In this document: piece after piece, positions 30,072-52,694 of the stretch
How positions within the stretch are numbered: position 1 is the stretch's first letter
Layout: every line of letters starts with the position of its first letter
Virus record (IMG/VR): IMGVR_UViG_3300020463_002275
Coordinates: 1 to 64,000 of that record
Source of the DNA: a virus
Direction: 5' to 3' (one strand)
Length of the DNA: 64,000 bases
Notes under the pieces: generated by a model
Databases searched by the model: none
What the model was told of the DNA's origin: nothing
What the model saw: the letters and a program-made list of their open reading frames with translations, nothing else
Position numbers and translations under genes: made by a program

Positions 30072-30647
30072 ATGGAAGTTCTATACCTAATATTATTCGC
30101 TTATGTTGCATACATGCTGATTGTCACAATTGGTATTACATACGGATATCATCGTTATTTTTCTCATAAAGAATTTAAAGCCACTACTTGGCAAGAAGTA
30201 ATAATGTTGTATTGTGGTTTGTTATGTGGTGGTAGATCTCCGCTTACATGGGTAGGTGTTCATCGTATGCATCATGCTCATAGCGATACAGAATTAGATC
30301 CACACAGCAAAAAATTTCAACCTTGGTATGTAATACTTTTTAGTTTATGGCATGTCGACAGTATTCCACGAAAATTTATAAAAGATATGCTGAAAAATCC
30401 AAGAGTTGTATTTTTTCACAAACATACAAATAAACTGTATATTGCAAATGCAATTTTACTTACACTCATCTTTGGTCCTAAAGCACTTCTTGTTTTAGGC
30501 ATAATTTATTTACTTGCTTACTTTGGTTTTGGTGCATTGAATTTATGGGGTCACGATGCAGAAGGTCCTATTAATAATATATGGATAAACTTGATTGCTC
30601 CTTGGGAAGGGAATCATAAAGACCATCATGAAGTAAGTATGAGATGA
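30072..30647 (+). CDS. Membrane fatty-acid (acyl-lipid/CoA delta-9-type) desaturase
   Basis: Three His boxes HRYFSH, HRMHH, NHKDHH plus TM helices. Confidence 0.85.
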   Translation: MEVLYLILFAYVAYMLIVTIGITYGYHRYFSHKEFKATTWQEVIMLYCGLLCGGRSPLTWVGVHRMHHAHSDTELDPHSKKFQPWYVILFSLWHVDSIPRKFIKDMLKNPRVVFFHKHTNKLYIANAILLTLIFGPKALLVLGIIYLLAYFGFGALNLWGHDAEGPINNIWINLIAPWEGNHKDHHEVSMR

Positions 30648-31168
30648 TTTATTACAAATATTTAGATATAAATTATAAAAGTTTAGCAGAAGAAATAAAA
30701 AAATATCTTCTTGACAATCCTCATCTAATAGAACGTGGCGACGGTAACTGGCGGGTTGCTACATCTTGGCTTTTAGAAAATTTTCCGCATATAAAAGATT
30801 TGTTTGAATGGGAGATAGAATTTGCAGGCATTTTTGTATCACATACAAGTGAAGGTAGTGTGCATATTGATAACGATGAAAAACCTGTAAGAATTAATTT
30901 TCCTATAATGAATTGCCACGATACTGTAACAAAGTATTTTAGACGTACAGGAGATACTATAAAAGGAAAACAAACTAATGGCGTATCGTATCACGGAGTT
31001 GATACAGATAACTTAGAAGAAGTTGATCACTTTGTATTAGACAGACCGGTTGCTATGCGTGTTTTAGAACCTCACCAAGTTTGTGTTGATCACGAGAACT
31101 ATCCAAGAGTAAGTTGTACTATACAATTTAAACAAGATATAGAATATTTGTTAAAGGAAAAGATATGA
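30644..31168 (+). CDS. 2OG-Fe(II) oxygenase-like protein
   Basis: VHIDND (HxD), EPHQV, RVSCTI. Confidence 0.6.
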   Translation: MIYYKYLDINYKSLAEEIKKYLLDNPHLIERGDGNWRVATSWLLENFPHIKDLFEWEIEFAGIFVSHTSEGSVHIDNDEKPVRINFPIMNCHDTVTKYFRRTGDTIKGKQTNGVSYHGVDTDNLEEVDHFVLDRPVAMRVLEPHQVCVDHENYPRVSCTIQFKQDIEYLLKEKI

Positions 31169-32142
31169 ATAATAATGTAACATTTACTACTAGCACCGAT
31201 AGAGATGAAATTGTAAAATTGTTAAAAGATGTTGGTATCATTGTAATGCGAGATCACGGAATGAGTCTATCACAATACAATGACTTTTTATTAGATGTTG
31301 GTTATCATCAACATCCTAAAGTTTGGTGTGCCCATAAAGAATTTCCTATTTTTTGGCGTGTAAACAATCAACCAGTAGACGACAAAGGTCATGAAGGATT
31401 GTTTGGTAAGCACGATATTGATTGGCATTCAAACATTTTATACACACAAGACAGTCATGAAGTTGTATGCATATATGGTCATAAAATTCCAACAGGTAGT
31501 GGTGATTGTAGTCCAACTACGTATTCAAATACAGTACCTTATTTTAAAACACTACCTAAAAATGTACAAGACCGTTATAAAAAATTATACACTAAATGGA
31601 CTTATGATGAAAACAAGACAATGGAAAATAGAGACATTAATTTGCACAGAGCAGGATTAGACGGAGAAGCACTAGCAGGCGAAGCAGAAGATACTTCAGA
31701 TGAAAATTTAAATCATCAAATAAATGAAAATGCAAAAACACAATCTATATTTAATGCTGTAAATTTTGATCCTTCAAACAAACATTTATTCAAAAAGGGA
31801 AGACATCAATACGAAGGATATAACAGATTAGTACCAAATCATCCAGTAGGTGCTGAAGGTTTATTTTTTAACTATCTAAATATCGAAGACATTGTTGATG
31901 AAAACTATGAACCTGTACCAGACGCACGAGAAATTTTTGAAACACTTAAACAAGATTTACTCATTGACGATACATATCATTATGTACACGAATGGCAAGA
32001 AACTGACATTGTTATAGCAGACCAATTGACTGGTGTTCACCGTAGAGACCATGGTGTTCCAGATAGCGTAGAAAGGGAATTGTTAAGAGCAACGTTTTGG
32101 TATAAAACACAAGACAGAATTCACTATGACTATTCATTATAA
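31165..32142 (+). CDS. TauD/TfdA-family dioxygenase
   Basis: DWHSN, TTYSNT, HEWQETDIVIADQLTGVHRR. Confidence 0.75.
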   Translation: MNNNVTFTTSTDRDEIVKLLKDVGIIVMRDHGMSLSQYNDFLLDVGYHQHPKVWCAHKEFPIFWRVNNQPVDDKGHEGLFGKHDIDWHSNILYTQDSHEVVCIYGHKIPTGSGDCSPTTYSNTVPYFKTLPKNVQDRYKKLYTKWTYDENKTMENRDINLHRAGLDGEALAGEAEDTSDENLNHQINENAKTQSIFNAVNFDPSNKHLFKKGRHQYEGYNRLVPNHPVGAEGLFFNYLNIEDIVDENYEPVPDAREIFETLKQDLLIDDTYHYVHEWQETDIVIADQLTGVHRRDHGVPDSVERELLRATFWYKTQDRIHYDYSL

Positions 32143-32917
32143 TAATATATTACATAACCAAAGCCTTGCAGTAAGAACAAATGTTTTACAGGAAGTTAAA
32201 AAAGTTATAGAAAAAGTTGAACCAGACTTTGATAGTGTAGAAAAATATAAAACAAATATTATTGAATGGTTAAAACCTATAGTAGATTTGAAAGATTTTT
32301 ATGTTTATCCGATGAATGGAATAACTGAAGGTTTGAATTGGTGGTATTATCAAGATAATCGTAGTGTCTATATGGACGAAGGAGACTATCAATGGATACA
32401 CTCTCGAGGAAACATGTATGATAACTGTATTAAATATGTAAGTGTACCAAGTGCAATAAATGGAAATTTTACAAACATTCCTGAAAACACACCTACAGCA
32501 GTTGACTTAGCATACGTTGGTAGTACTAAAGTAAAAAAAATAAACTTGCCAAAAAATGTTGAATATGTATTTTACAGTTTTTCTAAACCATTTGGTATTA
32601 GAAATATTAGAACTGGTTGGATATTTACAAAACAAAAAGATTCTAAATTAGATGCATTAATACATAGTGCAAAGTATTATAACTATTTTGCAAATAGTGT
32701 TAGCGAAGCAATAATCAAAAATTTTGATGTTGACTTTATATACAATTCGTTGTATAATAAACAAAAGACTATTTGTGAAGAATTAGATATTGTTCCTAGT
32801 GATAGTGTTTGGCTTGCTACAAGCACTAGAGAAGAGTATCAAAAATTTAGACGTAGCGGAGATATAGCAAGACTCTGCCTAGCAGGAATATATAATGAAC
32901 AAGAAACACTTACCTAG
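32126..32917 (+). CDS. PLP-dependent fold-type-I enzyme (compact)
   Basis: NGITEGL, VDLAY (pyridine-binding Asp), SFSKPFG..R.GW (Schiff-base Lys). Confidence 0.65.
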   Translation: MTIHYNNILHNQSLAVRTNVLQEVKKVIEKVEPDFDSVEKYKTNIIEWLKPIVDLKDFYVYPMNGITEGLNWWYYQDNRSVYMDEGDYQWIHSRGNMYDNCIKYVSVPSAINGNFTNIPENTPTAVDLAYVGSTKVKKINLPKNVEYVFYSFSKPFGIRNIRTGWIFTKQKDSKLDALIHSAKYYNYFANSVSEAIIKNFDVDFIYNSLYNKQKTICEELDIVPSDSVWLATSTREEYQKFRRSGDIARLCLAGIYNEQETLT

Positions 32918-33506
32918 TATACATAACTACAATTTAGATATTGACTTAAAACAATTACAAGATGCTTGTAATAAACTGGCAGAAAAGTTTGTTGATGTAA
33001 AAACAGCAAACCCAATGTTGTGTGATAATCATATGGAGTTAGTTGCTCATGTTTATGATAACTTTGAACAAATTAATTTAACTACACCTAGCGAAATATT
33101 ACCTTATACTACAAGTATTAAAGAAAGACTAAGACGAAAAGAAGAACATTTATATAACGTGCCTACAGAAGATTATACAGGCAGTTATTTTGAAAAAATA
33201 ATTACACAATTAAAAGCACCAGCAAGTAGAATTAGAATTACTAAACTTGCTCCAGGAAAAAATATTCCGTTTCATGTTGACTATGATGTGAGTTATGCTG
33301 TCAGATGTATTGTACCTATTTACGGAGACAAGCAAGTAATAAATTTATTTAAACGTGAAGGCAAACTAGAAGCATATAGTCTAGAGAACGGTAATGCTTA
33401 TTTCCTTAATATTGGATATCCACATGCCGTTGTTAACATGAGTAGCAAACCTCGTATTGCTCTTATGTTTAGTCTTAATGGTACAGAGGATATTCAACAT
33501 TTATGA
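32895..33506 (+). CDS. AspH-like 2OG-Fe(II) hydroxylase
   Basis: RITKLAPG..IPFHVD, YPHAVVN, RIALMFS. Confidence 0.75.
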   Translation: MNKKHLPSIHNYNLDIDLKQLQDACNKLAEKFVDVKTANPMLCDNHMELVAHVYDNFEQINLTTPSEILPYTTSIKERLRRKEEHLYNVPTEDYTGSYFEKIITQLKAPASRIRITKLAPGKNIPFHVDYDVSYAVRCIVPIYGDKQVINLFKREGKLEAYSLENGNAYFLNIGYPHAVVNMSSKPRIALMFSLNGTEDIQHL

Positions 33507-33964
33507 TTACATGGTACTTAGAACCAATACAATCTCATATAGATAAAATTAAAGAATTGTTTGCTAAAAACGTAGATCATAAATTAGCAAGTAATTATTT
33601 AGAAATGCCTCTTTTTGAACATACAAAATTTGCTAGAATGGGATACGATAATGATAAAATGATTTATTATAGTGCAGGTATGGAACGTCCTCAGTATAAT
33701 GGATCTGTTAGAATAATGAGTAGGCACACAAGAGATAGAGAATACGATTTTGGATCTAAGAGCGATGATTTAGCAAGAGGTTTAGAAACATTAGAACAAA
33801 GTGTAGCATATGCCCAGTCATTAGGTTACAAAGACATATGGCTTAGTAGAGAATTTAATCCAAAACTGTTTGAATACTTTGCAAAGCAAAGCAAATACGA
33901 TTGGACTGTAACACACGAATTAATGCATTATGGCGAATACCAATATATAATGAGACTACAATGA
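33503..33964 (+). CDS. GNAT-like acyltransferase (tentative)
   Basis: beta4-helix pattern VRIMSRH...GLETLEQSVAYAQSLGYKDIWLSR. Confidence 0.45.
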   Translation: MITWYLEPIQSHIDKIKELFAKNVDHKLASNYLEMPLFEHTKFARMGYDNDKMIYYSAGMERPQYNGSVRIMSRHTRDREYDFGSKSDDLARGLETLEQSVAYAQSLGYKDIWLSREFNPKLFEYFAKQSKYDWTVTHELMHYGEYQYIMRLQ

Positions 33965-34692
33965 CTGTAACAACTTGTAAAACTTCATTTTTTTCTATTG
34001 ATGATATTGGTGTTATAGTTAAAACAAATAATCAAAGCATTAAAAAACAACCTTGCGTTTGGCTGATACACGGCAGTGGCGGAATCAGTAGTAATGAAGA
34101 TTTATGGATTGAACGTGCATTTGAATTAGGTCATACAGTTATTATTGTTGACAGTTATAGCAATAGAGGCATATACAAACAAAATTGGGAAAGTATGGAA
34201 GAATTTAGAATTGACCCAAAACAACGTGCTAAGGATCAAATAAAAGCATACGAATACCTTTTAAATAAACAAAACATTATACCTTTTGCAGATATAACTA
34301 ATAGTAAAGTAGTAGGGTTTTCAGACGGTGGTACAGCAGGAATATGGCTACAACAAAATGATTATCCTGACTATTGGAAGGAAAGTTATTGCTTATATCC
34401 AGGATTGAAGCCAACAGTATTACCCCGAGAAATATATCAAATACGTAGTAATAAGGTGCATATATTTGTAGGAGAATTAGATAATTGGACCCCGGCTTTT
34501 TATGATTTAGATTATCAAAAAGCAACTAATTGTAAACTTACTATATGGCCAGAAACACATCATAGTTTTAGTAAACCGGGTATAGGAACATGGCATGAAA
34601 ATACACTTAATTACAAAAGAGAACGTGGAGTTTACTGTAAATACAGTGCAGAAGCAACACAACAGACAATGGAAATAGTTTTTAATGGATAA
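33961..34692 (+). CDS. Dienelactone hydrolase-family alpha/beta hydrolase
   Basis: IHGSGG, GFSDGG nucleophile elbow, GELDNW, HHSF. Confidence 0.75.
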   Translation: MTVTTCKTSFFSIDDIGVIVKTNNQSIKKQPCVWLIHGSGGISSNEDLWIERAFELGHTVIIVDSYSNRGIYKQNWESMEEFRIDPKQRAKDQIKAYEYLLNKQNIIPFADITNSKVVGFSDGGTAGIWLQQNDYPDYWKESYCLYPGLKPTVLPREIYQIRSNKVHIFVGELDNWTPAFYDLDYQKATNCKLTIWPETHHSFSKPGIGTWHENTLNYKRERGVYCKYSAEATQQTMEIVFNG

Positions 34693-35221
34693 TAAAGTTT
34701 GTTTTACATTTGAGTTTGAATATGATATGAAAGCATTAGCAGACATAGTGTATAATATTGACAAATGGGATAGTTATATTCCACCAAAGTGGGATGAAAC
34801 AAAATACACTATTAATAATTTTACTGGTGTAACATATAGGTATTATGAAGATTTACAAAACAAAGAACCTATAAAAACAATAAGAGAAAAATTAAATTTT
34901 CCATATTTGGATTATAAGACAACTCAACTACTAAAGTTTCCTCCGCATAATGGACCTACTATTCATAGAGATACGGAACGACATACTGCTATACTTTTTC
35001 CGATATATACTAATGAAGTATACGAACCTATAAAATTTTATCATGATGATACATCAGAATGGTTTGAAGTAGACTATCATGATAAGGTAATTGTATTTGA
35101 TGCAAAAGTGTTACATGCAGTTGCAAATAAAGAGTATAATAGATTTAGTTTACAGTTTGATTTTAAAGAAACGTATAAAGAAGTATATGAAAAATATTGT
35201 AACGGAGAATTTTTTGCTTAA
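34685..35221 (+). CDS. 2OG-Fe(II) oxygenase-like protein
   Basis: TIHRD, VLHAV, RFSLQF. Confidence 0.6.
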   Translation: MDNKVCFTFEFEYDMKALADIVYNIDKWDSYIPPKWDETKYTINNFTGVTYRYYEDLQNKEPIKTIREKLNFPYLDYKTTQLLKFPPHNGPTIHRDTERHTAILFPIYTNEVYEPIKFYHDDTSEWFEVDYHDKVIVFDAKVLHAVANKEYNRFSLQFDFKETYKEVYEKYCNGEFFA

Positions 35222-37397
35222 CGTTTTCGGAGTACAATTGAATGCACACTATACTGTGACACTTCCTGTTAGTTTAGGAACATTGTGGTCGTATCTTTAT
35301 ACAGTAAAAGATGTATACAAACATTTGAATCATACAGGCTGGGCAACTTATCATAAGCCTGAAACTAGTGTAATGGAACTGTTTCCAGAAGTTGATAAAA
35401 ACGGTGCACCTGATGTAGTGCTTGTTAGTTTATACATGTGGAATAGAAACAGATCCATAAAACTTACAAAAGCAATTAAAGAAAAATATCCTGATGTAAA
35501 AATTATTGTCGGAGGAAATGAAGTTCCTCAAGATCCTGAAAGATTTAAACAGTTTGTTGCTGATAATCCTCAGTTTGATTACTATGTTAACAGTGAAGGC
35601 GAAATGGCATTAGAAATGATGTTGCGAAAAATACTTGCTGAAAAAGGTATTTACAAGTCAAAATATTATGAAGATTGTTATCACCAAACAAAAAATGGCA
35701 AAATTATTAGTAAGCAAACAACTAGACGTTACTTAAATCATAAAGCAGAATTAGATTATCCTAGTGCATGTGCATTAGGACTATATGATGACTTAGTTGC
35801 AAAATTGCCTAAAGATATACAAATACAAGGTGTATTAGAAACTAATAGAGGATGTCCTTACACTTGTACATTCTGTGATTGGGGATTAGAAGAAAAACTA
35901 AGACGTTTTAGCATGAAGCGTATCAAGGACGAAATTGATTGGTATGTAGGCAACGTACACGAAATAATGTTTTCTGATGCTAACTTTGGCATTTTGCATA
36001 GAGATCTAGATATTGCAAAATATTTAATCAAGGCAAAATTACAACATCCTAATCCTAAATTACATACAACAGCAATTACGTATGCAAAAAATAACAAAGA
36101 AAGAGTTTTACGTATTGCAGAGATATTAGAGAAATTTGACTTTAGTAGAAGTGGTGCAACTTTTAGTTTGCAAAGTTTACATACTCCTACACTTGAAGCA
36201 ATCAAAAGAGATAACTTGAGTATTACAAAAGATTTTGAATGGATTGCACAAAACTTTATTAAAAAAGGCTTACCTTACTATCATGAAATGATTATGGGAA
36301 TGCCGTTAGAAACAAAAGAAAGTTTTCTAAACGGTATGAGTAAGTTGTTAAAATATAATCCATTAGAAATAAATGTATACAAATTAGCATGGTTGGAAAA
36401 CAGTGAAATAAGTTTAGAAAAACATGAAGATATTTACAAGTTAGAATGGGACGAGTTTGAACAAGGACCTAGTCCGTTTGAAGATGAAAAAGAATATGCA
36501 TATATCATTGGAAGTACGAGTACGATTACACGAAAAGATATGAGATATATTAGAGACATACGTGATTTGATACAAGTGTTATGGTTAGGAAGAACAATAT
36601 TCTATGTAGGAAGATATCTACAAAACGAATATGACATTGAAGCATGTGATATGATTGAAAAAATTGTTGACTGGTTTCAAACAAAAGGCGATAAAGAATT
36701 TTTTGATACATTGTTAGCAAGTAAAGAAGATGCAGTGCGTGATAAAAAAAGAGATGTACCTCTTTGGTTTCCTTACCAAAAAGATAAATTAAAATTCCAT
36801 AGGTATTCTAATGCTTGGTTATTTTTACACGGCACAAAAGAAAGAAAAAATCATTTCTATGAACAAATTACACAGTTTTTCTTAGACACTTACAAGCAAG
36901 TAGACAAAGACTTATTATTAGATCTTATACACTTCAATAAAAATATACTTATTGATGGAGAACAAACTGAATTCAATACAAACTTTACAACAAAGTATAG
37001 TTGGATTGATTATTTTACGAAAGGCCAACTTATGAAATCTAAGACAACATATGATGCTAAAATAGAAGTTGCTGGAAATACAAAAGTTTCTAAAGATGCT
37101 GTTGATCGAAATGTTTTCTTATATTATATTTCAGGCGGACATGAATTCATGTTTAACAAACAAAATGCATTTTATTATCCAGATGGAACATACACAAACG
37201 AACAAGGCATACATCATTACATAAGTAGAATAGGAATGTTTTATCCTAAAGATACTTACTTTGAAAGTGCTGAAGATATTATTGATAGTATATTAAACGA
37301 AGAAGATATTGATATTAAAGAATATATTACTAGTGCAAGACTTAAAATATCAAAAAATATTAACGAAGAATTAAATCCTTTTAAAGTTTCTGCTTAA
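35187..37397 (+). CDS. Cobalamin (B12)-binding radical SAM enzyme (class B methyltransferase-like)
   Basis: N-terminal B12 domain (SLYMWN, IIVGGNEV, NSEGE), ETNRGCPYTCTFCDWG, DANFG, MIMGMPLET. Confidence 0.85.
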   Translation: MKNIVTENFLLNVFGVQLNAHYTVTLPVSLGTLWSYLYTVKDVYKHLNHTGWATYHKPETSVMELFPEVDKNGAPDVVLVSLYMWNRNRSIKLTKAIKEKYPDVKIIVGGNEVPQDPERFKQFVADNPQFDYYVNSEGEMALEMMLRKILAEKGIYKSKYYEDCYHQTKNGKIISKQTTRRYLNHKAELDYPSACALGLYDDLVAKLPKDIQIQGVLETNRGCPYTCTFCDWGLEEKLRRFSMKRIKDEIDWYVGNVHEIMFSDANFGILHRDLDIAKYLIKAKLQHPNPKLHTTAITYAKNNKERVLRIAEILEKFDFSRSGATFSLQSLHTPTLEAIKRDNLSITKDFEWIAQNFIKKGLPYYHEMIMGMPLETKESFLNGMSKLLKYNPLEINVYKLAWLENSEISLEKHEDIYKLEWDEFEQGPSPFEDEKEYAYIIGSTSTITRKDMRYIRDIRDLIQVLWLGRTIFYVGRYLQNEYDIEACDMIEKIVDWFQTKGDKEFFDTLLASKEDAVRDKKRDVPLWFPYQKDKLKFHRYSNAWLFLHGTKERKNHFYEQITQFFLDTYKQVDKDLLLDLIHFNKNILIDGEQTEFNTNFTTKYSWIDYFTKGQLMKSKTTYDAKIEVAGNTKVSKDAVDRNVFLYYISGGHEFMFNKQNAFYYPDGTYTNEQGIHHYISRIGMFYPKDTYFESAEDIIDSILNEEDIDIKEYITSARLKISKNINEELNPFKVSA

Positions 37398-38061
37398 ACT
37401 CAGTTACACCTAAACCTATTTTATTTTCATTGTCAAATCTTGGATCATTCCATTCTTTTTTAATTTCTTTTGGAAACGGTAAACTAGTATATTCTAAACT
37501 TTCAATATTTTTATAATATTCTTTGTTAGGTTTCCAAGGAGACCCTATACAAACAGTTAATTTTATATCATTACCTGTATTAGTCATACCATGTGGGTGT
37601 GAGCCGTTTATAACATATGCATCAGTTTGTGGTTCGTAATAATGCTTATTGCTATTTCCATCAAAGAAATACAGTGTGCTTTCTTTTTTGCCTTTGACCA
37701 CCCATCTAAATTTATGTTGCATTCCGCCAACTTCTTCTGGCGCACTATCAACATGATCATTTAACATTTCGCCAGGCTTAGTTTTGATAACTGTGACATT
37801 TCCTACTCCACCAATATAAGGAAAAACGTAATCACGCAAAGCAACAACTGATGCTGATTCTTTTGGTAAATTAGGATTAAAACTGTATTGTTCAAACCAG
37901 CCAACGTCCGGCCTAGCATTATATAAACTACACATCCATGCACCATGAAATTTAATCCAGTACCAATCATTTTCTGGTAAAGATAATATTTCTTGTGCAA
38001 CTTGTTCTTTGTTAGGAATATCAAGATTTACAAGATCCATGTATGTAATTATTCTGTCCAT
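37381..38061 (-). CDS. AspH-like 2OG-Fe(II) oxygenase
   Basis: KTKPGEMLNDHVDS, HPHGMTN; 3' end overlaps the convergent B12-rSAM gene. Confidence 0.65.
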   Translation of the reverse strand: MDRIITYMDLVNLDIPNKEQVAQEILSLPENDWYWIKFHGAWMCSLYNARPDVGWFEQYSFNPNLPKESASVVALRDYVFPYIGGVGNVTVIKTKPGEMLNDHVDSAPEEVGGMQHKFRWVVKGKKESTLYFFDGNSNKHYYEPQTDAYVINGSHPHGMTNTGNDIKLTVCIGSPWKPNKEYYKNIESLEYTSLPFPKEIKKEWNDPRFDNENKIGLGVTEFKQKL

Positions 38062-44521: not shown

Positions 44522-45444
44522 TATATACGCTCTTCTCTTTCAACTTTATTTAATCCTTTGTCTGTACCACGTTCATCAAATACACCTTCAATTAAAAACC
44601 GTAAAGGTGTACGCACACCAAATTGATGCTTACCGTCCGCATCACTTATCCATCCTACATGAATACTATCTGATTCTTGTAAATTAAAATCTGCACACAC
44701 TTTTGTATATAAATTTTCATAATTACTCCACCAAAAATCTGTACCAAAATGTTGCATTGCTTCTGCTCCTAGCCACATATCACTTACATTTGCATAAGCA
44801 AAATCGTTCATAATAGCAATAGGTCCATTTACACGTTCTCTAGTATAGCGTATGCCAATACGTTGACTGCCCATACCAAGTGCTTTTGATAAACTTACAC
44901 TAACACTTTTAACAGCAGGATGTGTAACATCAAATTCAAAATTTCTACATTGTCCAAACCATGCTCCATCAATGTGTACTGGAATGTCATGTCTGTCGCA
45001 ATGATCTAACAACTTGTCAAAATCCTTATGATAATTTGTAGTGATACAACTAGGATAACTTACTATGAAAACATCACCTTTTTTAAGATCACTATAATGA
45101 GTAATTTGATTTACAGTAAAGTCTGTTAAGCGTCTATGATACTTGTATTCACCTTTGTATACTGTTATATTACGTCCATACAGTTGATGTAATTCATCTA
45201 ATTGGTGTGTAGTTCCTAAAATTGCATCTCTACGTACAAAAGTGTTTAATCCTTTGTACTGCACACGTTTATGTGCGTTAATCCATTCGTCGATAATTTG
45301 TAAAAATATTTTTGTATACTCATGAGGATCTTTTGGATATCTTTGCATATCTAAATTTTCTCTAAATTTGGTAAACTTGCTAAGGTACATAGGCCTTTGC
45401 CGTCTGGTACCTAGCATTTCAAATGTTATATCTTCATACTTCAT
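44521..45444 (-). CDS. PLP-dependent fold-type-I enzyme (compact)
   Basis: GTTHQLD, IDGAW, SLSKALG...RIG; probable start MKYED at 45444. Confidence 0.65.
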   Translation of the reverse strand: MKYEDITFEMLGTRRQRPMYLSKFTKFRENLDMQRYPKDPHEYTKIFLQIIDEWINAHKRVQYKGLNTFVRRDAILGTTHQLDELHQLYGRNITVYKGEYKYHRRLTDFTVNQITHYSDLKKGDVFIVSYPSCITTNYHKDFDKLLDHCDRHDIPVHIDGAWFGQCRNFEFDVTHPAVKSVSVSLSKALGMGSQRIGIRYTRERVNGPIAIMNDFAYANVSDMWLGAEAMQHFGTDFWWSNYENLYTKVCADFNLQESDSIHVGWISDADGKHQFGVRTPLRFLIEGVFDERGTDKGLNKVEREERI

Positions 45445-46136
45445 ACTATGCGTCCAAAACCCCAATATCTTTCTAAACAAAAAAAGCATTCTCCACAATG
45501 CAAATGATTGCCTTTATCATCTAATAATTCATAAGGCGCATTTTCACAACTAAAAGTATAAGGATATAATTTTTCCATCATATCTAATTCTTCATACGCA
45601 CTTGCAGTACCTTTTTTGTCAGTAGCACCAAAAACTCTATATGGATTTGTGTTAGGATGTGAAATATTATCCCTATCAGTATCTCTAATATCAAGATGCT
45701 TTTGTATTCTTGAGAAATCTAGTCCGTGCGTACTTGCATTTTCTTTAAAATAATTTTTCATTTCTAGTGGAGGTGGATTTTTTGTTAGTCCACTAAAAAA
45801 TCCTATATCGCCATATTTTTCTTTTACTTCTGCAACTAATTGTTCTTGGCCATTAGTATAATTTTTGTCACTATGTGGCACTGTTATAGTAAAATGTTCA
45901 GTAGGTTCTATTCCTGTAAGATCTTTTACAATACCTATAACACGTTTTGCGCCTGCAATATATAAATTTTTAAAATCTGTATCTAAAGTTACTACAATTA
46001 TTTTAGTATCTAAATTATTATCTTTGATATGTTTGCATAAAGCATAGTATAGGATAGAACTATCTGCTCCTCCGCTTAATTTCATTCCTATGTATTCGCC
46101 AATGTTTAAATTTTTAATCTTATCTAATATACTCAT
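45441..46136 (-). CDS. QueC-like PP-loop adenine-nucleotide alpha-hydrolase
   Basis: SGGADS, TFSC, HCGECFFCLER. Confidence 0.75.
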   Translation of the reverse strand: MSILDKIKNLNIGEYIGMKLSGGADSSILYYALCKHIKDNNLDTKIIVVTLDTDFKNLYIAGAKRVIGIVKDLTGIEPTEHFTITVPHSDKNYTNGQEQLVAEVKEKYGDIGFFSGLTKNPPPLEMKNYFKENASTHGLDFSRIQKHLDIRDTDRDNISHPNTNPYRVFGATDKKGTASAYEELDMMEKLYPYTFSCENAPYELLDDKGNHLHCGECFFCLERYWGFGRIV

Positions 46137-47029
46137 ATCCATTTCTCCACTATTGCGTCCAATTTACAAGGACATGCTTTATAATTACACACTATAGGAT
46201 CCTCTGGTAGTGTGTATGCACCCGTTTTAAGATTACCCAAACTTCCACCAACACGTTTTGTACAACGTAGCATATTGCCATCTGGTTCTACCATTAATCT
46301 TTTTATACCTGCTGTACAAGTATATCCGTTGAATATATGCTTTTGTTGATCTAATACTTTCATAAACTTTAACGGATCACCATCAAAATGTAAGTTTCGA
46401 GGTATGGTCCAATCTATACCAAATGGCTTCATTTTATGCCATGCATTATTTTGTATCCATTCTCTTTGTTCGTCAGTGTATTTAAAATAGTTTGTACCAC
46501 CTATACTAGTCCTTGTAAATTTTGGAGTTATTTCTACTTTCAGATCAGTCAACCTATAATACAAAGACTTAGCACGTTCAAAATTATCTGGTGTAATCAT
46601 AAGTGGTATACTTACACTTGCTTTATGTTGCATAATTTTTGCAACTTCATAAAAATGATCATCGTCAGCAAATTCGTTATGCCAACTTAAAAAACAAAAT
46701 GCCCTGTGTGTTCTAAACTTTTCCCAATATCTTAAAGTCCTACTTGCGTTTGTACTAAATTCTACAAAAACTGTGTCTGAACTTATAGTATCTACAAAGT
46801 CCTGGAACTTAGGCCATAGTGTAGGTTCTCCGCCTAAAACTTCTACATAAAGATACTTGTTCTTTTTTTGCATTTTTTCAATAAGATCGATGTAGGGCTC
46901 CCATTCAGTTGGCCAACGTTCACTGCCATCTCTATGATAATCGTCACAGTAACTACAATTATAATTGCATACATTATGTATAAACAACGTGATAATAGCA
47001 CAGTCTAGATTTTCATTAGTTATGTGCAT
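46133..47029 (-). CDS. Radical SAM enzyme with C-terminal twitch-like Cys cluster
   Basis: CNYNCSYC, LGGEPT, STNA, CTAG...RC...CNYKACPC. Confidence 0.88.
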   Translation of the reverse strand: MHITNENLDCAIITLFIHNVCNYNCSYCDDYHRDGSERWPTEWEPYIDLIEKMQKKNKYLYVEVLGGEPTLWPKFQDFVDTISSDTVFVEFSTNASRTLRYWEKFRTHRAFCFLSWHNEFADDDHFYEVAKIMQHKASVSIPLMITPDNFERAKSLYYRLTDLKVEITPKFTRTSIGGTNYFKYTDEQREWIQNNAWHKMKPFGIDWTIPRNLHFDGDPLKFMKVLDQQKHIFNGYTCTAGIKRLMVEPDGNMLRCTKRVGGSLGNLKTGAYTLPEDPIVCNYKACPCKLDAIVEKWI

Positions 47030-48372
47030 TAAAATAAATCCTTATATTGCGGTACAATATCTAAAATATTTTGATCACGTACTTTGTCAAGTTTTTTAGT
47101 TTGATCTACAAAATGTTCTAACCATTCCTCTGAATAGTCTTCGCTCATCATAAATTTTTCTACGCCATTTAAAACTTTTGCATAATTTCCTTTTACATGG
47201 TCACTAAAGTCTGTTGTTGCAATCCAATCCTTATGTTCTTGATAATAATCTTTTACTTGTTGTTTTAATTCAGGAGGCAAAACTTTTACATTAAAATATT
47301 TAGGACTATGACACATATGATGTGTAAGTATAGGTCTCATACCATCAATAGGATTAAATTTATCTAATCCACTTTCAGTAAGTTTCCATTTCATAAAATC
47401 TGCCATATGGAATACATTATAAGGTGTAACAGTAAACGCAAACCATGCTTTGAGATTAATTTTTTCATTTTGCTGTAGCGTCATCATATGTTTGTATACT
47501 GCATCAAACTTTGCAGGAGTGCGTTGATAGTTAAACACATCACCTATGCCATCTATACTAACACCAATTCTAATTTGTTTAAATTGTTCCCACAGATAAA
47601 CTAATCTATCAGGAACCATTGTAAGATTACTATTATATTCTAATTGTATCTGTTTACTTTTACCAGACGCTACTAAACGTTCTAAACTTTCTTGATGTTC
47701 TTTAATAATTAAAGGTTCGCCGCCAACTATATAAAGTTTTTTTGCTTTAGGCCCGTACTTTTCAAAATTACTCCAGTATCTATTATTATTTTGAAACCAA
47801 TCATATTGATCAGTATGCCACTTGCCTTTGGCATTTTTAGTAAGTTTAATTTTTTCATGTGTATCTTTGTATTCTGTTTTTCCTGTTATTGCAACAAAAT
47901 CATCATACCATTTATGACTGTCTGTAGGTCCACACATTCTACATTTTAAATTACAAAAATTACCGTATCGTACATCCATAAATTCGATTGGCAAACTTTC
48001 AGCATCAATAGTTCCATCTTCTTCAGTATGTGGTAACATTTTTTCTAAACTTATATCGCCAAACCATTTACCCCAATCGTCATTTTCATACTCACGTCTG
48101 CTACGAATACCGTTTACTTCTTCTTGTCGGCAACGTTCGCACTCAGGATGCCATTCGCCTTTCATCATTGACTTTCTTACTTCTTTTAGTATTTCTGCAT
48201 TACGTGCTTCGTTCCAATCATCTTTGCCTGCATTATACGGAGTACCATCTTCTTTAGACATGATACCACGCTTAGGACTGTAACTGTTTGTGTTACAACA
48301 AATACGCAAATCACCATTGTTACGCATGTTAATACTATTCCACGGTAATGGGCAAAAAGTACAATCACTCAT
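47029..48372 (-). CDS. Radical SAM enzyme with N-terminal SPASM/twitch-like domain
   Basis: CPLPW...GDLRICC...CERC, then GNFCNLKCRMC, GGEPL, YNSN. Confidence 0.88.
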   Translation of the reverse strand: MSDCTFCPLPWNSINMRNNGDLRICCNTNSYSPKRGIMSKEDGTPYNAGKDDWNEARNAEILKEVRKSMMKGEWHPECERCRQEEVNGIRSRREYENDDWGKWFGDISLEKMLPHTEEDGTIDAESLPIEFMDVRYGNFCNLKCRMCGPTDSHKWYDDFVAITGKTEYKDTHEKIKLTKNAKGKWHTDQYDWFQNNNRYWSNFEKYGPKAKKLYIVGGEPLIIKEHQESLERLVASGKSKQIQLEYNSNLTMVPDRLVYLWEQFKQIRIGVSIDGIGDVFNYQRTPAKFDAVYKHMMTLQQNEKINLKAWFAFTVTPYNVFHMADFMKWKLTESGLDKFNPIDGMRPILTHHMCHSPKYFNVKVLPPELKQQVKDYYQEHKDWIATTDFSDHVKGNYAKVLNGVEKFMMSEDYSEEWLEHFVDQTKKLDKVRDQNILDIVPQYKDLF

Positions 48373-49781
48373 TTGATATCCTCAAAAATATCTTTCATTT
48401 CAGGAAAAGTTTCTGCGAAAGAAATACCACGTTGCTTGTCACATAAATCTAAAAATTCTTTCATTTCAGGCAAGCGTTGTGTCCAATCTTCGCTTTCCAT
48501 AAACTGTAACATACCGTTAAGTCTGCTTATTCCATAACTAGCATTACGCCATGTATCATAATCAACTTTTCCTTTGTGCCAACTAGGAACACCTTTTTCC
48601 CAGTTTTCTTCCCACCACGGGTACCATGCTTCATATTTTTCACGACATTTTTCTTTAAACCACTTTGGTAAAATTTTAACATTAAGATGTGGTGGATGAT
48701 AAACAAAGTGATAATTAATAGCACCTGCACCAAATGGCCACATGTTAATTTTTTTAAAATTTTGTTCTAGTTTCCATTGTATAAAGTCAGGTAAGTAGTA
48801 AATGTTTAAAGCCTGTACTGCACAAGCAACTGTAACTTCTGTATTATTAGGTGTTTCGTTATCTAAAATATGAAACACTTCTTCTTGACGTTTCCAATTA
48901 CTAGGATAACGTATATAATCGTTCATTTCCTTAATACTATCTATTGAATAATGAAAACGTACTAATTTAAATTCTTTCCACAAGTCAAATAAATCTTCAC
49001 GCCATTCAACTCCATTTGAATTATAGCGTAGTTCTAAATCTTTTGCATATCCCATTTTAATTGCATGTTCAAGTATTTCGTAGTGTTCTTCAATAATAAG
49101 GCTTTCGCCTCCTGCAAAATAAATTTGTTGCATACTTGGCATTTGTTCATAAAACTGATTCCAAAATACAGGATTTTGTTTATGCCAATTATAACTACTT
49201 CCATTAAAACTACCTTTGTCTTTCCATTGCATAGTTTCTTTAAGACTTTCATCTTGTACTGCTGGAAAAATCTTTTTATAATCTTTAATCCATCCTGATG
49301 AATCATGAGGTGAACACATAACACAAGCAAGTTGGCACTTAGTTCCAAAACGTAAATCAATATATGCTAACTGTGGAGGTACACTTCCATCTTCTTTTGT
49401 ATCTGCAACTATTTTATCAACATCAACACGCTGACTCCAATAGTGTGTTTCCCACATACGTTTTGAATTATGTCCTGCGGCTTCTTCTTTGTAACACTTG
49501 ATACAACTTGGAGGCATTTCTCCGTTAAGCATTTGTTTACGCACATTCTTCATATATGTACTATTCCATGCTGTTTCAAAATCACTAACATTTAAGTTAT
49601 TAGGTCTTCCATGCTCATCTTTGAGAATACCAACTTGTCCTCCGTGTTCTTTATCGTTTGTAGGACCAACTGAACTTGCATTTGCAGTACAGCATACTCG
49701 CATGCTACCGTCAGGTCTAGTACTTAAATGTACCCAAGGTAGTAAGCAGAATGTTTCTGATGGTGATTTAAAGTCTTTCAT
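48369..49781 (-). CDS. Radical SAM enzyme with N-terminal SPASM/twitch-like domain (paralog of the adjacent gene)
   Basis: CLLPW...GSMRVCC...CIKC, then CQLACVMC, GGES, YNSN. Confidence 0.88.
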   Translation of the reverse strand: MKDFKSPSETFCLLPWVHLSTRPDGSMRVCCTANASSVGPTNDKEHGGQVGILKDEHGRPNNLNVSDFETAWNSTYMKNVRKQMLNGEMPPSCIKCYKEEAAGHNSKRMWETHYWSQRVDVDKIVADTKEDGSVPPQLAYIDLRFGTKCQLACVMCSPHDSSGWIKDYKKIFPAVQDESLKETMQWKDKGSFNGSSYNWHKQNPVFWNQFYEQMPSMQQIYFAGGESLIIEEHYEILEHAIKMGYAKDLELRYNSNGVEWREDLFDLWKEFKLVRFHYSIDSIKEMNDYIRYPSNWKRQEEVFHILDNETPNNTEVTVACAVQALNIYYLPDFIQWKLEQNFKKINMWPFGAGAINYHFVYHPPHLNVKILPKWFKEKCREKYEAWYPWWEENWEKGVPSWHKGKVDYDTWRNASYGISRLNGMLQFMESEDWTQRLPEMKEFLDLCDKQRGISFAETFPEMKDIFEDIK

Positions 49782-50824
49782 TATAAGTGTACATCTCTAA
49801 CTAATTGTTTGCATTTTCTTACACAAACAAAATATGTTTGTAAGTGATCGTCTATAAGTTTCCAATAACCACCTATTATATCTACTAAATTTGTGTGGTG
49901 TAGATTATGTAAATTTTTATCAACTTTGTGTGTTTCCCAAAGTTGTTCAATCTCGTTTGGATTACCCATCCAACAACAAGGCGTTACATATCCTCTTGCA
50001 TCAACATATATATTGCCAAACTTCTTGTGAAATTCAGTATCGCCACTATTTGTTTTTGCAGGACATTTTACACAACTTATTTCAGTATTTGATTTGTGTG
50101 TTTCTTTCTTATCCTTATCACCAAATTTAATATCTGATATTTCTACATCGTCAATCTTGTTTGCATCGCTAGTATCATACCAATCTGGTACTTCAAATTT
50201 TGTATCTCTTTCGTTGTCAATTTCATCTACTACTTCTCTATCACTATGAATCAACATTAGTTTTGAAAATCCTTCTCGATCTAACCTTTCCTTTACATCA
50301 TCTAATTGATGTTTATTGTGCGAGAATACAATAAATTGCCAAACAGCATCTCCTCCTGCGGCAATGTATGCTCTAAAATTACGCTGTAGTATTTCCCATT
50401 TTACATTTCGTCTATAAAGATGATTAGTATCTTCTAAACCGTCTATACCAAAAACTACAGTTAACTTACCCTTTTTTTTACTAATACGACCTAACTTGTG
50501 CCAAAACGCAACATCTCTTGTACCACCATTGGTGCTAATTGATATTTTTTTTGTTTGTATACTTAATGTATGTGCCCATTGTACTAGATCTATTAATTCT
50601 GGATTAATAGATGGTTCATCAACACTTCCACAAAAATGAATATCTGTCAATTGATCCCAATTGTACTTACTAAACCATTTCTTGTAATTTTCTAACGTAT
50701 GTGCGGCATTATTAAGATCGCTTAAATGCATATCGGCTCTGTCGCATTGCGGACATGCCGCATTGCAATAATTTGTACATTCTAGTTGCAATCTACCAAC
50801 TTGTGTTGTATTAAACCATTCCAT
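49781..50824 (-). CDS. Radical SAM enzyme with C-terminal SPASM-like domain
   Basis: CNAACPQC, CGSVDEP, STNGG, YVDARGYVTPCCW...CVRKC. Confidence 0.88.
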   Translation of the reverse strand: MEWFNTTQVGRLQLECTNYCNAACPQCDRADMHLSDLNNAAHTLENYKKWFSKYNWDQLTDIHFCGSVDEPSINPELIDLVQWAHTLSIQTKKISISTNGGTRDVAFWHKLGRISKKKGKLTVVFGIDGLEDTNHLYRRNVKWEILQRNFRAYIAAGGDAVWQFIVFSHNKHQLDDVKERLDREGFSKLMLIHSDREVVDEIDNERDTKFEVPDWYDTSDANKIDDVEISDIKFGDKDKKETHKSNTEISCVKCPAKTNSGDTEFHKKFGNIYVDARGYVTPCCWMGNPNEIEQLWETHKVDKNLHNLHHTNLVDIIGGYWKLIDDHLQTYFVCVRKCKQLVRDVHL

Positions 50825-50835: not shown

Positions 50836-51924
50836 TTATCTGAACTGTTCACCGTAAGGATCGAACTCGGTGCCACACTTTTGAGAACAAACTCCAAGTT
50901 TACCATCTGCAACACTAGACTTATTCCAACTATTTGTTATGCTTCCGATTAGTTGTCCATTAACTACATCTTCTATATCATTTTCTATAATACTAATTCC
51001 TTGTTTTCCGCCAGCACTATCTATATGATCCCATATTTGTTCAACTTTAGGATCTGCATGCCACCACTTGTACATTCTTCCTGCTGTCCAACAACACGGC
51101 ATTAACAATCCCTCTGCTGTAACAAATATACTACCTTGCTTCGCAACTTTACATTTTATAGAACATTTGTCTAAATATTCTTTCATACTTCCATATGACT
51201 TTACTATTTCTGCTTGTTTTAACAATGCTAAATTTTTATTTTTTTCTTCTTTTGGTTGTTGCAGTTTTTGTGTTTCAGCACCTTTTCTGTTTACCGCTTG
51301 GTGATGATATTTAGGTTTTATATCAGTAGTTACAAATCTACCACTTTTCTTTTTAATAAATTTTTCACACCCCCATTGATTAGCAAGTGCTTCTGCTTCA
51401 TCTACTTGATGTTCGTTATGCTGAAATATTAAGAAATCCCAACGTGCTCTGCCTCCAGCATCAATAAATGCTTGCATGTTTCTTTCTACATTATCCCATA
51501 CAACATTTTGTCTGTATAGATGATTTGTATCACGCAATCCATCAACACTAAAAATAACAGCACCCTTTCTTCCTATTACTTCTGCTAATTTTGCCCACCA
51601 ATAGATATCTTTGGCGCCAGCATTAGTATTCATACTAAGCCACATATTAGAATTATGTTCTCTAAAATATTGAAATATTTCTAATGTATCTTTTGCAACT
51701 ATAGGATCTCCTAAGTTACCGCACATATACATAACATTCAATTGCTTGATAAATGAAGGACTAAACATACGCTTGGTATCTTCAATACTTAATTCAGCAT
51801 TTGTTATGTGAGGATTGTCAGCACCGCCATTCATATTACGATCACACATAGGACAAGCCGCCTGGCAACGTTGAGTCACCTCTAAATGAACTTCCTTAAT
51901 ATCTGCGAATCTATACATTCTCAT
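50836..51924 (-). CDS. Radical SAM enzyme with C-terminal SPASM-like domain (paralog of the adjacent gene)
   Basis: CQAACPMC, CGNLGDP, NTNAG, FVTAEGLLMPCCW...CSQKC. Confidence 0.88.
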   Translation of the reverse strand: MRMYRFADIKEVHLEVTQRCQAACPMCDRNMNGGADNPHITNAELSIEDTKRMFSPSFIKQLNVMYMCGNLGDPIVAKDTLEIFQYFREHNSNMWLSMNTNAGAKDIYWWAKLAEVIGRKGAVIFSVDGLRDTNHLYRQNVVWDNVERNMQAFIDAGGRARWDFLIFQHNEHQVDEAEALANQWGCEKFIKKKSGRFVTTDIKPKYHHQAVNRKGAETQKLQQPKEEKNKNLALLKQAEIVKSYGSMKEYLDKCSIKCKVAKQGSIFVTAEGLLMPCCWTAGRMYKWWHADPKVEQIWDHIDSAGGKQGISIIENDIEDVVNGQLIGSITNSWNKSSVADGKLGVCSQKCGTEFDPYGEQFR

Positions 51925-52480
51925 TTTGTTTTAACAATTCACTTAACAAATGTGCTTTAAGTAGCACCGCTTGGCTATAACTTTTGTGTGAGATATTTAA
52001 AAAATTATTGTCTACTTTAAACGAATCAGCATCTATAAGTTTTATTTGACCGTCTGATGTAAAAACGATATTTGATAAGTTAATGTCGTCATGGAAAAAA
52101 TATTGACCTTTAGGAAGATGTTTTTCACTAAACTCAAGACAATCAAAATATACACGGTTGTAAAATTTTACAATCTTAAGAGCATTTTCTAATGTAGACA
52201 TTTTGTGCAATCTGTCGTACTCATCTGCTTCATCTAGTACATCGTATCCATCACAAACAATATCAAGACGTTCCATTTTATAAATATCTCTTGTTTTCCA
52301 TTCAATCGGCTTTACAACATAACTGTGATCTTTTGAAAATAGTACATATAAGTTGTAATATTCCTCTTCCCATCCCCTTTGACCAACTTTTATTATTTTT
52401 GTAGCATTTTTCTCTTGAAGTTTTATCGTAGCATTGTTTCTTTTAATTATTTTTGCGTTATAAAAATTTTTATCCATCAT
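51911..52480 (-). CDS. Small protein-kinase-like (PKL/APH) phosphotransferase
   Basis: IIK, EEEY, HDDINLSN catalytic loop, KLIDADSF metal-binding motif. Confidence 0.65.
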   Translation of the reverse strand: MMDKNFYNAKIIKRNNATIKLQEKNATKIIKVGQRGWEEEYYNLYVLFSKDHSYVVKPIEWKTRDIYKMERLDIVCDGYDVLDEADEYDRLHKMSTLENALKIVKFYNRVYFDCLEFSEKHLPKGQYFFHDDINLSNIVFTSDGQIKLIDADSFKVDNNFLNISHKSYSQAVLLKAHLLSELLKQNENV

Positions 52481-52694
52481 ATACCAACTTTACTTCTTTA
52501 CCAGGACCTACACGACTTGGTAAATCTCCATACTGTTCAATATACCATTCAATAACAGCCACATACCAATTTTGACTGTTGTGATGTGCTTGCTTGTTGA
52601 ACTTATAAATGTTATTATTAGTTGCTTCCATACAACTCAAGGCTCTAGCACTTTCAGTTTGTAATTGTCTAAGTGTTAATTTATTTGCGTCCAA
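52470..52694 (-). CDS. Small hypothetical protein
   Basis: Overlaps both neighbours. Confidence 0.55.
   Translation of the reverse strand: MDANKLTLRQLQTESARALSCMEATNNNIYKFNKQAHHNSQNWYVAVIEWYIEQYGDLPSRVGPGKEVKLVYDG

Follow-up and report, generated by a model that had tools for sequence, protein, structure and literature searches.

A modular radical SAM gene island among the tail-fibre genes of a virus genome fragment

The first 64,000 nucleotides (the window) of the 181,934-bp IMG/VR virus record IMGVR_UViG_3300020463_002275 (CheckV completeness 51%) carry an island of closely packed enzyme genes, rich in radical S-adenosylmethionine (SAM) enzymes, among tail-fibre genes. The locus to which the island belongs is widespread and modular: a conserved core is combined with interchangeable tailoring genes. 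Within positions 30072-52694 we found 27 open reading frames (ORFs) with overlapping or abutting ends, as an earlier sequence-only reading of this DNA had described (about 27 tightly packed genes). The two convergent arms of that reading were also seen: a plus-strand arm (30072-37397) and a minus-strand arm (52694 down to 37381) overlap by 17 bp where they converge, at 37381-37397, and intergenic gaps are absent from 57983 down to 37381.

The enzyme classes and the siting among fibre genes were as previously described, and neither a scaffold synthase nor a plausible precursor peptide was found in the island, again in agreement. The limits 30072-52694 hold for the gene block; the true unit, about 26 kb between the tail-fibre genes, extends to at least 55857, because g28 belongs to the conserved core. 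A 94-aa ORF at 42039-42323 was rejected as probably spurious, having an odd composition and overlapping the nitroreductase gene on the other strand.

Conserved core, variable blocks and cellular counterparts

The core consists of g28, g27, g25, g23 and g15:

52681..55857, minus strand: g28, predicted 1058-aa fusion of two GT-A domains, helical repeats and a class-I SAM methyltransferase (AlphaFold 2 models, fold search)
52470..52694, minus strand: g27, conserved 74-aa protein (found in 70 of 81 viral loci)
50836..51924, minus strand: g25, radical SAM, core member by its recurrence in related loci
48369..49781, minus strand: g23, N-terminal-twitch (N-twitch) radical SAM, conserved core member (NF033640, 420.3 bits)
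40905..42014, minus strand: g15, core radical SAM of class C, gene 1 of cassette B (PF04055, E 1.6e-14)

Relatives of g23 were found in 201 viral stretches, the best 80 being 83-100% identical. All island proteins were mapped onto 81 viral loci with a g23 orthologue, 48 of which extend at least 8 kb to either side of g23. The gene order is fixed: g28, g27 and g25 are followed by a variable block, g23 by another, and g15 by the remaining variable genes. Among the 48 well-flanked loci, g25 was present in 45, g27 in 44, a g28-type GT-A domain in 37 and g15 in 32. Over all 81 loci g25 was matched in 78 (median identity 65%), and orthologues of g15 with 77-99% identity occur in 62 viral loci.

The blocks between the core genes hold mainly divergent radical SAM paralogues; per ~20 kb, related loci have 8 radical SAM genes in the median and 13 at most. 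Clustering at 50% identity gives 86 clusters for the 257 distinct N-twitch proteins, one of them being the g23 orthologue group. Turnover is also visible between close relatives. The contig IMGVR_UViG_3300020450_001451 is 97-100% identical over most of 33945-59781 of the window and carries a clean 1,112-bp insertion, one extra radical SAM gene of 372 aa (4698-5809 of the relative's retrieved locus), exactly at the g19/g18 junction (44521/44522). Identity to the same contig falls to 69-83% in g17, against 97-100% in its flanks, which indicates that g17 is a locally replaced allele. In other relatives the homologues of g01, g03, g04 and g05 share the strand of g15 and follow downstream of it, which makes the plus-strand arm an inverted part of the same island.

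It could be argued that the island collects unrelated auxiliary genes in a hypervariable dumping ground, with no joint function, since accessory content differs greatly between relatives and many accessories occur in only a few loci. We find this hardly credible, as the core co-occurs in viruses and bacteria, the genes overlap in an operon-like manner and are all intact, and a four-gene cassette is repeated in order. The sequence-only reading had proposed a linked multi-step system, against which independent acquisition without conserved linkage would have spoken; such acquisition is contradicted by the five-part core in viral loci, most of which is also found in cells.

The cellular counterparts were identified with a g23-type alignment, run against prokaryote genomes at one per species. 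Orthologues of g23 (55-62% identity) were located in Bdellovibrionales, Bacteriovoracaceae, Halobacteriovoraceae and Oligoflexia, on complete chromosomes as well as long contigs. In these Bdellovibrionota, g23 adjoins g25 (41-46%), g15 (54-67%) and stand-alone g28-type GT-A and methyltransferase domains; 13 of 15 cellular loci contain g15, 11 contain g25, 11 the methyltransferase domain and 8 the GT-A domain. The commonest neighbour other than radical SAM genes is glycosyltransferase family 2 (GT2), with 37 genes in 17 loci. The cellular arrays also hold N-twitch paralogues, pyridoxal-phosphate (PLP) enzymes, PP-loop proteins, carbamoyltransferase, B12 radical SAM, AspH, desaturase (one of them full-length) and short-chain dehydrogenase/reductase genes, and three such genomes contain 7-13 N-twitch family members each.

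In an even sample of 201 Bdellovibrionota genomes, a family member (E<=1e-20) was found in 23 and a g23 orthologue (at least 55% identity) in 8, a low frequency which makes the island accessory in Bdellovibrionota too. A quick g23 tree placed the viral orthologues in one clade (SH-aLRT 91) and most Bdellovibrionota in another (85), with a few deeper. Islands of the phage type were also seen on contigs of metagenome-assembled genomes labelled Flavobacteriaceae, Neisseriaceae, Rickettsiales, Chloroflexota, Acidimicrobiaceae, Verrucomicrobiales and Planctomycetota. These contigs are short, several include g27, and in the tree they fall among the viral orthologues; mis-binning of phage DNA is the probable explanation. 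A literature search for a radical SAM glycan cluster in Bdellovibrio returned none.

Among 50,697 phage records, a DNA search with the whole island gave no match, and protein searches with g22, g23 and g13 gave nothing or matches of 20-24% identity (Ralstonia RsoM2USA and the Vibrio K566/K567 jumbo phages). Judged by these comparisons, the core is carried by no cultured phage in that collection.

Tailoring enzymes and the repeated cassette

The eight radical SAM genes proposed from the sequence were all confirmed by Pfam, NCBIfam and motifs. Besides g15, g23 and g25 they are:

35091..37397, plus strand: g09, B12-binding radical SAM (PF02310 and PF04055; KedN5-family match E 1e-56, below the cut-off)
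42655..43839, minus strand: g17, class-C radical SAM (PF04055, E 1.2e-9)
46133..47029, minus strand: g21, class-C radical SAM, gene 1 of cassette A (PF04055, E 2.9e-10)
47029..48372, minus strand: g22, N-twitch radical SAM, variable member (NF033640, 351.9 bits)
49781..50824, minus strand: g24, variable radical SAM with a C-terminal SPASM-like domain (PF04055 and a partial SPASM match)

These eight are the sole PF04055 matches in the whole 182-kb record, and all pass the cut-off of 29.5 bits in the own-genome search; in the per-protein Pfam scan g22 (27.4 bits) and g25 (28.1 bits) scored slightly below it, and their motifs were read directly. The paralogues g24 and g25 match each other with E 7e-45 (BLAST). 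From its domains g09 is a probable C-methyltransferase-type radical SAM, and its true start probably lies downstream of 35091.

Two of the eight, g22 and g23, belong to NF033640 (N_Twi_rSAM; curated cut-off 170 bits), covering positions 3-398 and 1-398 of 398, respectively, and the other six (25-44 bits) are not members. Among 1.84 billion representatives the family has 4,550 clusters at 50% identity (E<=1e-30). Its N-terminal domain carries a four-Cys pattern, C..PW..CC..CxxC, ahead of the CxxxCxxC core; in 30 diverse members C12, C30/C31, C93 and C96, followed by C149/C153/C156, are invariant or nearly so. The Pfam SPASM match (residues 12-97) falls in this domain, whose profile matches the twitch domain of BtrN with E 1.4e-3. 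BtrN is a radical SAM aminocyclitol dehydrogenase. Some family members of 800-1400 aa show two matched stretches, and fused didomain proteins thus occur. Single-sequence PDB searches of g23, g13 and g14 gave nothing useful.

A four-gene order is repeated in the minus-strand arm, as g21-g20-g19-g18 (cassette A) and g15-g14-g13-g12 (cassette B): a class-C radical SAM, a QueC-like PP-loop protein, an aminotransferase-like protein, and then an oxygenase or an HxD..H protein. The remaining members of the two cassettes are:

45441..46142, minus strand: g20, QueC-like PP-loop ATPase, gene 2 of cassette A (SGGADS, HCGECFFCLER; 27% identical to g14, E 3e-19)
44521..45498, minus strand: g19, class-I aminotransferase-like PLP protein, gene 3 of cassette A (30% identical to g13, E 4e-33)
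43823..44521, minus strand: g18, HxD...H motif protein, gene 4 of cassette A (no family found)
40262..40903, minus strand: g14, QueC-like PP-loop ATPase, gene 2 of cassette B (SGGADS, HCGKCWWCEER)
39406..40365, minus strand: g13, class-I aminotransferase-like PLP protein, gene 3 of cassette B (invariant K215 of SxSK, D187)
38840..39403, minus strand: g12, AspH-like oxygenase, gene 4 of cassette B (PF05118, E 5.6e-13)

The first three positions are paralogous between the cassettes (g21/g15, E 6e-22; g20/g14, E 3e-19; g19/g13, E 4e-33). Both QueC-like genes of the sequence-only reading have SGGxDS and a C-terminal CG.C..C.ER motif, and both score below the Pfam QueC cut-off (PF06508, 22 bits), g14 with 21.9 and g20 with 15.5 bits; only the C-terminal ~55 residues align. 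A total of 384 metagenomic relatives of g14 were found. A PHROGs search with ten uncharacterised proteins gave a single weak match, which was QueC-like.

Pairs of QueC-like and QueE-like radical SAM genes might serve to hypermodify phage DNA or nucleotides, for example with a base of the 7-deazapurine type. The QueC-like proteins with their Zn motif do stand beside class-C radical SAMs more often than by chance, g21 and g17 give weak QueE matches, and a QueE-like radical SAM gene (phrog_2076, E 3e-54) is found in the replication region at 18903-19829 on the plus strand. Nevertheless, neither tRNA-guanine transglycosylase (TGT)/DpdA (PF01702) nor a canonical QueC was found in the 182-kb record, itself incomplete, and this makes DNA hypermodification, one of the options of the sequence-only reading, highly improbable. 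The sub-threshold QueC scores, the position of the island among fibre rather than replication genes and the presence of the core beside GT2 genes in bacteria point the same way.

The three PLP genes inferred from the sequence were confirmed by the invariant SxSK lysine, the D..A(W/Y) aspartate and profile matches to solved aminotransferases (3if2, 2.7e-5; 3g7q). Together with g13 and g19, one further gene forms a single paralogous family:

32126..32917, plus strand: g04, short class-I aminotransferase-like PLP protein (SxSK lysine; BLAST to g13, 2e-11, and to g19, 1.5e-7)

In an alignment of 16 sequences D187, S212, K215 and R223/G225 (RxG) are invariant or nearly so. The island proteins are compact (250-325 aa) and reach PF00155 scores of 16.4 and 15.2 bits, below the cut-off of 19.7, and they are a divergent, shortened form.

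The other island genes are:

30072..30647, plus strand: g01, membrane di-iron desaturase/hydroxylase-like, 191 aa (PF00487, E 5.7e-9; HRYFSH, HRMHH, HKDHH)
30644..31168, plus strand: g02, HxD...H motif protein (no family in Pfam or PHROGs)
31165..32142, plus strand: g03, TauD-family 2-oxoglutarate (2OG) oxygenase (PF02668, E 4.6e-18)
32895..33506, plus strand: g05, AspH-like 2OG oxygenase (PF05118, E 2.9e-6)
33503..33964, plus strand: g06, 153 aa (no family found)
33901..34692, plus strand: g07, dienelactone-hydrolase-type alpha/beta hydrolase (PF01738, E 2e-5)
34685..35221, plus strand: g08, HxD...H motif protein (no family found)
37381..38061, minus strand: g10, AspH-like oxygenase, final gene of the minus-strand arm (AspH profile E 1e-5; hhalign 87%, E 3.9e-6)
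38049..38843, minus strand: g11, TauD-family 2OG oxygenase (PF02668, E 1.6e-14)
42090..42680, plus strand, opposite the minus-strand arm: nitroreductase-family flavoprotein (PF00881, E 1.1e-5; own ATAAATA at 42029)
51911..52480, minus strand: g26, small kinase-like protein (motif FFHDDINLSN...IDADSF, Pkinase E 0.07)

Eight 2OG-Fe(II)/TauD/AspH-like genes had been proposed. Five of them stand, two as TauD, two as AspH and one as AspH-like by profile; the other three (g02, g08 and g18) have an HxD...H motif only, belong to no family, and gave no link to the AspH or TauD sets in profile and hhalign tests. An Atlas search with g18 returned viral hypothetical proteins alone, with DUF6445 on 13% of one cluster. 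The desaturase with its three His boxes, the hydrolase and the nitroreductase were confirmed as predicted. The GNAT call is not supported, g06 having given no family in Pfam or PHROGs scans, and the proposed kinase at 51911-52480 is weakly supported, by its Pkinase match and HxDxxxxN..D motif. The nitroreductase family is present in 25-31 of the 81 viral loci and was not found in the cellular loci with this phage's protein as query. We considered it as a fixed partner of g15 and rejected this, as the two are adjacent in only ~8 loci; it is a recurrent accessory.

The desaturase-like protein and the AspH-family genes, which recur and could act like LpxO or OlsC, raise the possibility that they and the B12 and other radical SAMs remodel acyl chains of host envelope lipids or lipid A. 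A full-length desaturase in a cellular array would fit this. So would weak NCBIfam matches to the lipid radical SAMs Tes, HpnJ/HpnR and rSAM_ladder_B12 and a profile match to Tes (7TOL, 1.5e-9), an enzyme which likewise has an N-terminal cluster domain (PMC13459092). These NCBIfam matches, however, span the generic radical SAM core only and lie far below the family cut-offs, the conserved core consists of GT-A, methyltransferase and radical SAM components rather than acyl-chain enzymes, and the desaturase is a variable accessory with homologues in 14-18 related loci. We therefore consider lipid remodelling very unlikely.

A possible sugar-bearing decoration

The domains of g28 were delimited as GT-A (residues 1-~300), a second GT-A (~320-540), about seven helical repeats of 23/27 aa (~600-800) and a methyltransferase (836-1058). 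The full protein is without a family match, and profile searches of its domains against PDB sequences gave nothing; matches came from the fold search alone, with AlphaFold 2 models built from alignments with the stand-alone relatives (pLDDT 84 for the GT-A and 92 for the methyltransferase domain). The GT-A model matches B4GALNT1 (VIA Z 10.8, rmsd 3.0, 141 residues), STIV A197 (2c0n, Z 10.0) and ThuS (Z 9.7), as well as many other GT-A enzymes (Z 9-10), and its DxD residues D64 and D66 are invariant. On these models the GT-A domains would be sugar transferases. The C-terminal 223 residues are a predicted class-I SAM methyltransferase, with Foldseek matches to NNMT, BioC and RebM (4e-8 to 4e-7, probability 1.00). 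The helical repeats in between (HSLFRLLGD..EDLRKAVTE.N) are encoded by a 69-nt (138-nt) tandem repeat at 53549-53881 on the minus strand and could be a spacer or a binding module.

The small protein g27 is unnamed, has no Pfam family and occurs as 1,995 clusters at 90% identity in public metagenomes, all of ~74 aa; an Atlas search gave no usable match. A tblastn search of the cellular loci (E<=1e-5) did not recover it. Nor does it resemble a precursor peptide, as its sequence is conserved over the whole length save the last ~6 residues and has no variable core.

The core of T4-type late promoters, ATAAATA, is strongly avoided in the window, with 10 sites where 43 would be expected and each of 100 shuffles having at least 10; TATAAATA occurs once against 12.8 expected. 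Most sites precede a gene start by 30-60 nt, which is what a purged late-promoter word would show. Two (28088 and 28119) are directly upstream of the fibre gene at 28165, one lies between the fibre-like genes 61763 and 61730 on the minus strand, and another precedes the nitroreductase (42029); none in the sense direction lies inside either arm. With this siting, and without gaps from 57983 to 37381, both arms look like late units that may be read through from late-type promoters before the fibre genes.

We put at roughly one half the probability that the island serves the late-expressed assembly and radical editing of a sugar-bearing decoration. This interpretation is favoured because the core combines GT-A domains, a methyltransferase and radical SAMs, because GT2 and carbamoyltransferase genes accompany that core in bacteria, and because a BtrN-type twitch domain is present. 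It is also favoured because PLP and PP-loop genes pair with particular radical SAM classes: PP-loop genes stand next to class-C radical SAMs 25 times in viral loci against 8.9 in shuffled gene orders, and PLP genes next to N-twitch genes 21 times in cellular loci against 7.6, counts that are inflated by the kinship of the loci. Finally, the position inside the fibre cluster and the strain-level turnover of cassettes fit a recognition arms race.

In such a pathway the GT-A domains of g28 would attach sugars to an acceptor, and the methyltransferase and radical SAMs would then edit these sugars, the latter via hydrogen-atom abstraction leading to oxidation, epimerisation, C-methylation, or C-C or C-N chemistry. 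By analogy to BtrN/BtrS and to QueC-type activation, the radical SAM of a cassette might make a keto or carboxy function, the aminotransferase-like enzyme could convert a keto group into an amine, and the QueC-like ATPase could activate a carboxylate or amide towards an amide, amidine or nitrile. The last cassette gene (the AspH oxygenase in B, the HxD..H protein in A) may hydroxylate the product. The decorated target would most likely be a virion fibre protein, because both arms appear to be read from late-type promoters before fibre genes; alternatively it could be a glycan or glycolipid of the host envelope. The decoration would be diversified as cassettes are gained, lost and replaced.

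More tentatively, the N-twitch arrays may be a combinatorial glycan-editing machine, in which each paralogue would carry out a different radical transformation on sugars already carried by a virion fibre or, in Bdellovibrionota, by a structure of the cell surface, and cassette swapping would rewrite the surface chemistry in a recognition arms race. If so, they would diversify glycans after assembly by a new mode, and would hold a large reservoir of radical sugar chemistry common to giant phages and predatory bacteria.

Besides the inflated adjacency counts, several observations weigh against a sugar-bearing decoration. The island holds no sugar-nucleotide synthesis gene, flippase or polymerase, and Pfam GT2 (PF00535) was not found in the record. 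The nucleotidyltransferases MobA and IspD, which have the same GT-A fold, also match g28 with Z ~9, the late-promoter argument rests on a 7-base motif, and a literature search for a characterised N-terminal-twitch radical SAM or NF033640 member found none. AspH-family enzymes frequently act on proteins or lipids. In addition, the radical SAM cores are closest in sequence to SPASM peptide maturases (8VPO, a cyclopropyl synthase, 3e-15; SkfB, 1e-12).

The last two points suit maturation of a protein or peptide, in which the radical SAMs, AspH/TauD oxygenases, kinase-like protein and GT-A would modify residues of a fibre protein or a small peptide by the logic of proteusins, sactipeptides or glycocins. 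Weak NCBIfam matches to many maturases of peptides made on the ribosome and modified after translation (RiPPs) would agree with this, as would the peptide S-glycosyltransferases SunS and ThuS and polypeptide GalNAc-transferases among the best GT-A fold matches, the protein hydroxylation carried out by AspH enzymes, the location between fibre genes, and g27 as a small conserved ORF heading the array. Yet g27 has no variable core and is missing from the cellular loci at the threshold given above. Pfam (E<=0.01) gave no PqqD/RiPP recognition element (RRE), protease or exporter for the scanned island proteins, though divergent RREs could escape; GT2 and carbamoyltransferase genes are abundant in the cellular arrays, and RiPP pathways seldom include PLP aminotransferase-like or QueC-like enzymes. 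We regard this explanation as possible but unlikely.

The same genes could also be read as a route to a free small molecule, an aminoglycoside- or aminocyclitol-like (pseudo-oligosaccharide) or nucleoside-type metabolite made in infection against competitors or the host. The enzyme mix of twitch radical SAM, aminotransferases, B12 radical SAM methylase, 2OG oxygenases, kinase-like protein, glycosyltransferases and carbamoyltransferase is aminoglycoside-like, and the BtrN twitch match fits. This is nonetheless quite unlikely: the Pfam/NCBIfam matches of the island include no 2-deoxy-scyllo-inosose synthase or other cyclase, Pfam scans of its proteins found no exporter or resistance gene, and the fixed site in the fibre cluster with strain turnover like that of O-antigen and receptor-binding genes better fits the decoration of a surface.

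Related systems and flanking genes

The sequence-only reading had called the chemistry undescribed; this does not wholly hold, as an abundance of radical SAM genes or cassettes in marine myophages is mentioned in two papers, though with no function given. Nishimura et al. (2017; PMC5332604) described a T4-like marine environmental genome with 12 radical SAM genes and Fe-S carrier genes. In pelagimyophages, Zaragoza-Solas et al. (2020; PMC7029224) noted cassettes of radical SAM genes within the host-recognition cluster. The likeness to these clusters is that of a large non-syntenic island among fibre genes. Both papers give counts and locations only, with no core, cassette structure, cellular counterpart or function; the defined core, the cassette structure and the cellular counterpart go beyond these two papers. 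The present phage also differs in that its polymerase is nearer to jumbo myoviruses and in that no Fe-S carrier gene (PF01521) was found in the 182-kb record, nor was IscU (PF01592).

The likeness to other known systems is partial. NF033640 is a catalogue entry without a known reaction, to which g22 and g23 are linked by score (352 and 420 bits against 170) and by the N-terminal four-Cys domain; in the present loci one conserved orthologue is accompanied by a hypervariable array. BtrN/BtrS of butirosin 2-deoxystreptamine synthesis offers an earlier case of a sugar-like ring being oxidised by a radical route and then transaminated, and it resembles the island in the twitch match and in PLP genes adjoining N-twitch genes, but this is an analogy only: in the island the twitch is permuted to the N-terminus, the PLP proteins are class-I-like and not of the DegT/BtrS type, and a 2-deoxy-scyllo-inosose synthase is absent. 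Viral systems of virion glycosylation (PBCV-1 A64R, STIV A197) have the GT-A fold in common with the N-terminal domain of g28 (2p6w; 2c0n, Z 10.0), and the island likewise lies beside structural genes, but they have no radical SAM component.

QueE-QueC of the preQ0 pathway resembles the cassettes in a radical SAM adjoining a PP-loop ATPase with SGGxDS and a C-terminal Zn-type Cys motif. The differences are the scores below the QueC cut-off, a radical SAM that is not QueE (33 bits against 260) and no FolE/QueD/TGT context seen, TGT having been searched for. Proteusin-type RiPP gene sets also have many radical SAM and oxygenase genes without a scaffold synthase; in the island, however, no precursor, leader-binding domain or protease was found, and glycosyltransferases, PLP and PP-loop enzymes dominate the accessories.

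Radical SAM enzymes are costly and oxygen-sensitive. Hundreds of contigs of abundant uncultured marine phages nevertheless give over 20-25 kb to as many as 13 of these enzymes, within the region that determines host recognition. Any reaction assigned to NF033640 would annotate thousands of genes, and the five-part core, the repeated four-gene cassette and the chromosomal copies in Bdellovibrionota open the problem to experiment. A product that decorates fibres or the envelope of the host would matter for the host range of phages, for superinfection exclusion and for how predator and prey recognise each other in the ocean.

Outside the island, the window also carries:

4494-7211: family-B DNA polymerase
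28165..30027, plus strand: fibre-like protein of 620 aa, left flank (Mtd_N domain, E 1.3e-11)

The polymerase is 41-45% identical to those of jumbo myoviruses of 350-490 kb (Phosso, Atu_ph07, 121Q and Vibrio 2.275.O), and a full genome of ~350 kb is therefore plausible. The closest polymerases are thus those of jumbo myoviruses such as Atu_ph07 and 121Q and not of classical T4-like cyanophages. No tRNA genes were found in the 64-kb window. The Mtd_N domain agrees with the tail-fibre gene expected on the left, and this gene is probably the first of the plus-strand late transcription unit. Glycosyltransferase and baseplate genes had been expected on the right; the neighbour there is not a baseplate gene but g28.

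Beyond g28 the minus strand carries three tandem paralogue pairs (56359-57165/57162-57983, 58330-59277/59330-60238 and 60249-61730/61763-63583). A DSD motif in the first pair suggests GT-A-like enzymes, and a Peptidase_G2 intramolecular-chaperone domain, of the kind usual in fibres and spikes, is present in the protein at 60249-61730. The sole sizeable gap in the minus-strand arm (346 nt) is mostly occupied by an unlisted ORF of 111 aa (57943-58278, minus strand). In the replication region, the gene at 22769-23308 (plus strand) has a 3'-5' exoribonuclease Rv2179c-like domain (E 8e-37). A further AspH-like gene lies distant from the island at 1067-1432 (plus strand), and a 601-aa carbamoyltransferase, of the same family that recurs beside the cellular arrays, is encoded at record positions 144374-145477 (plus strand).

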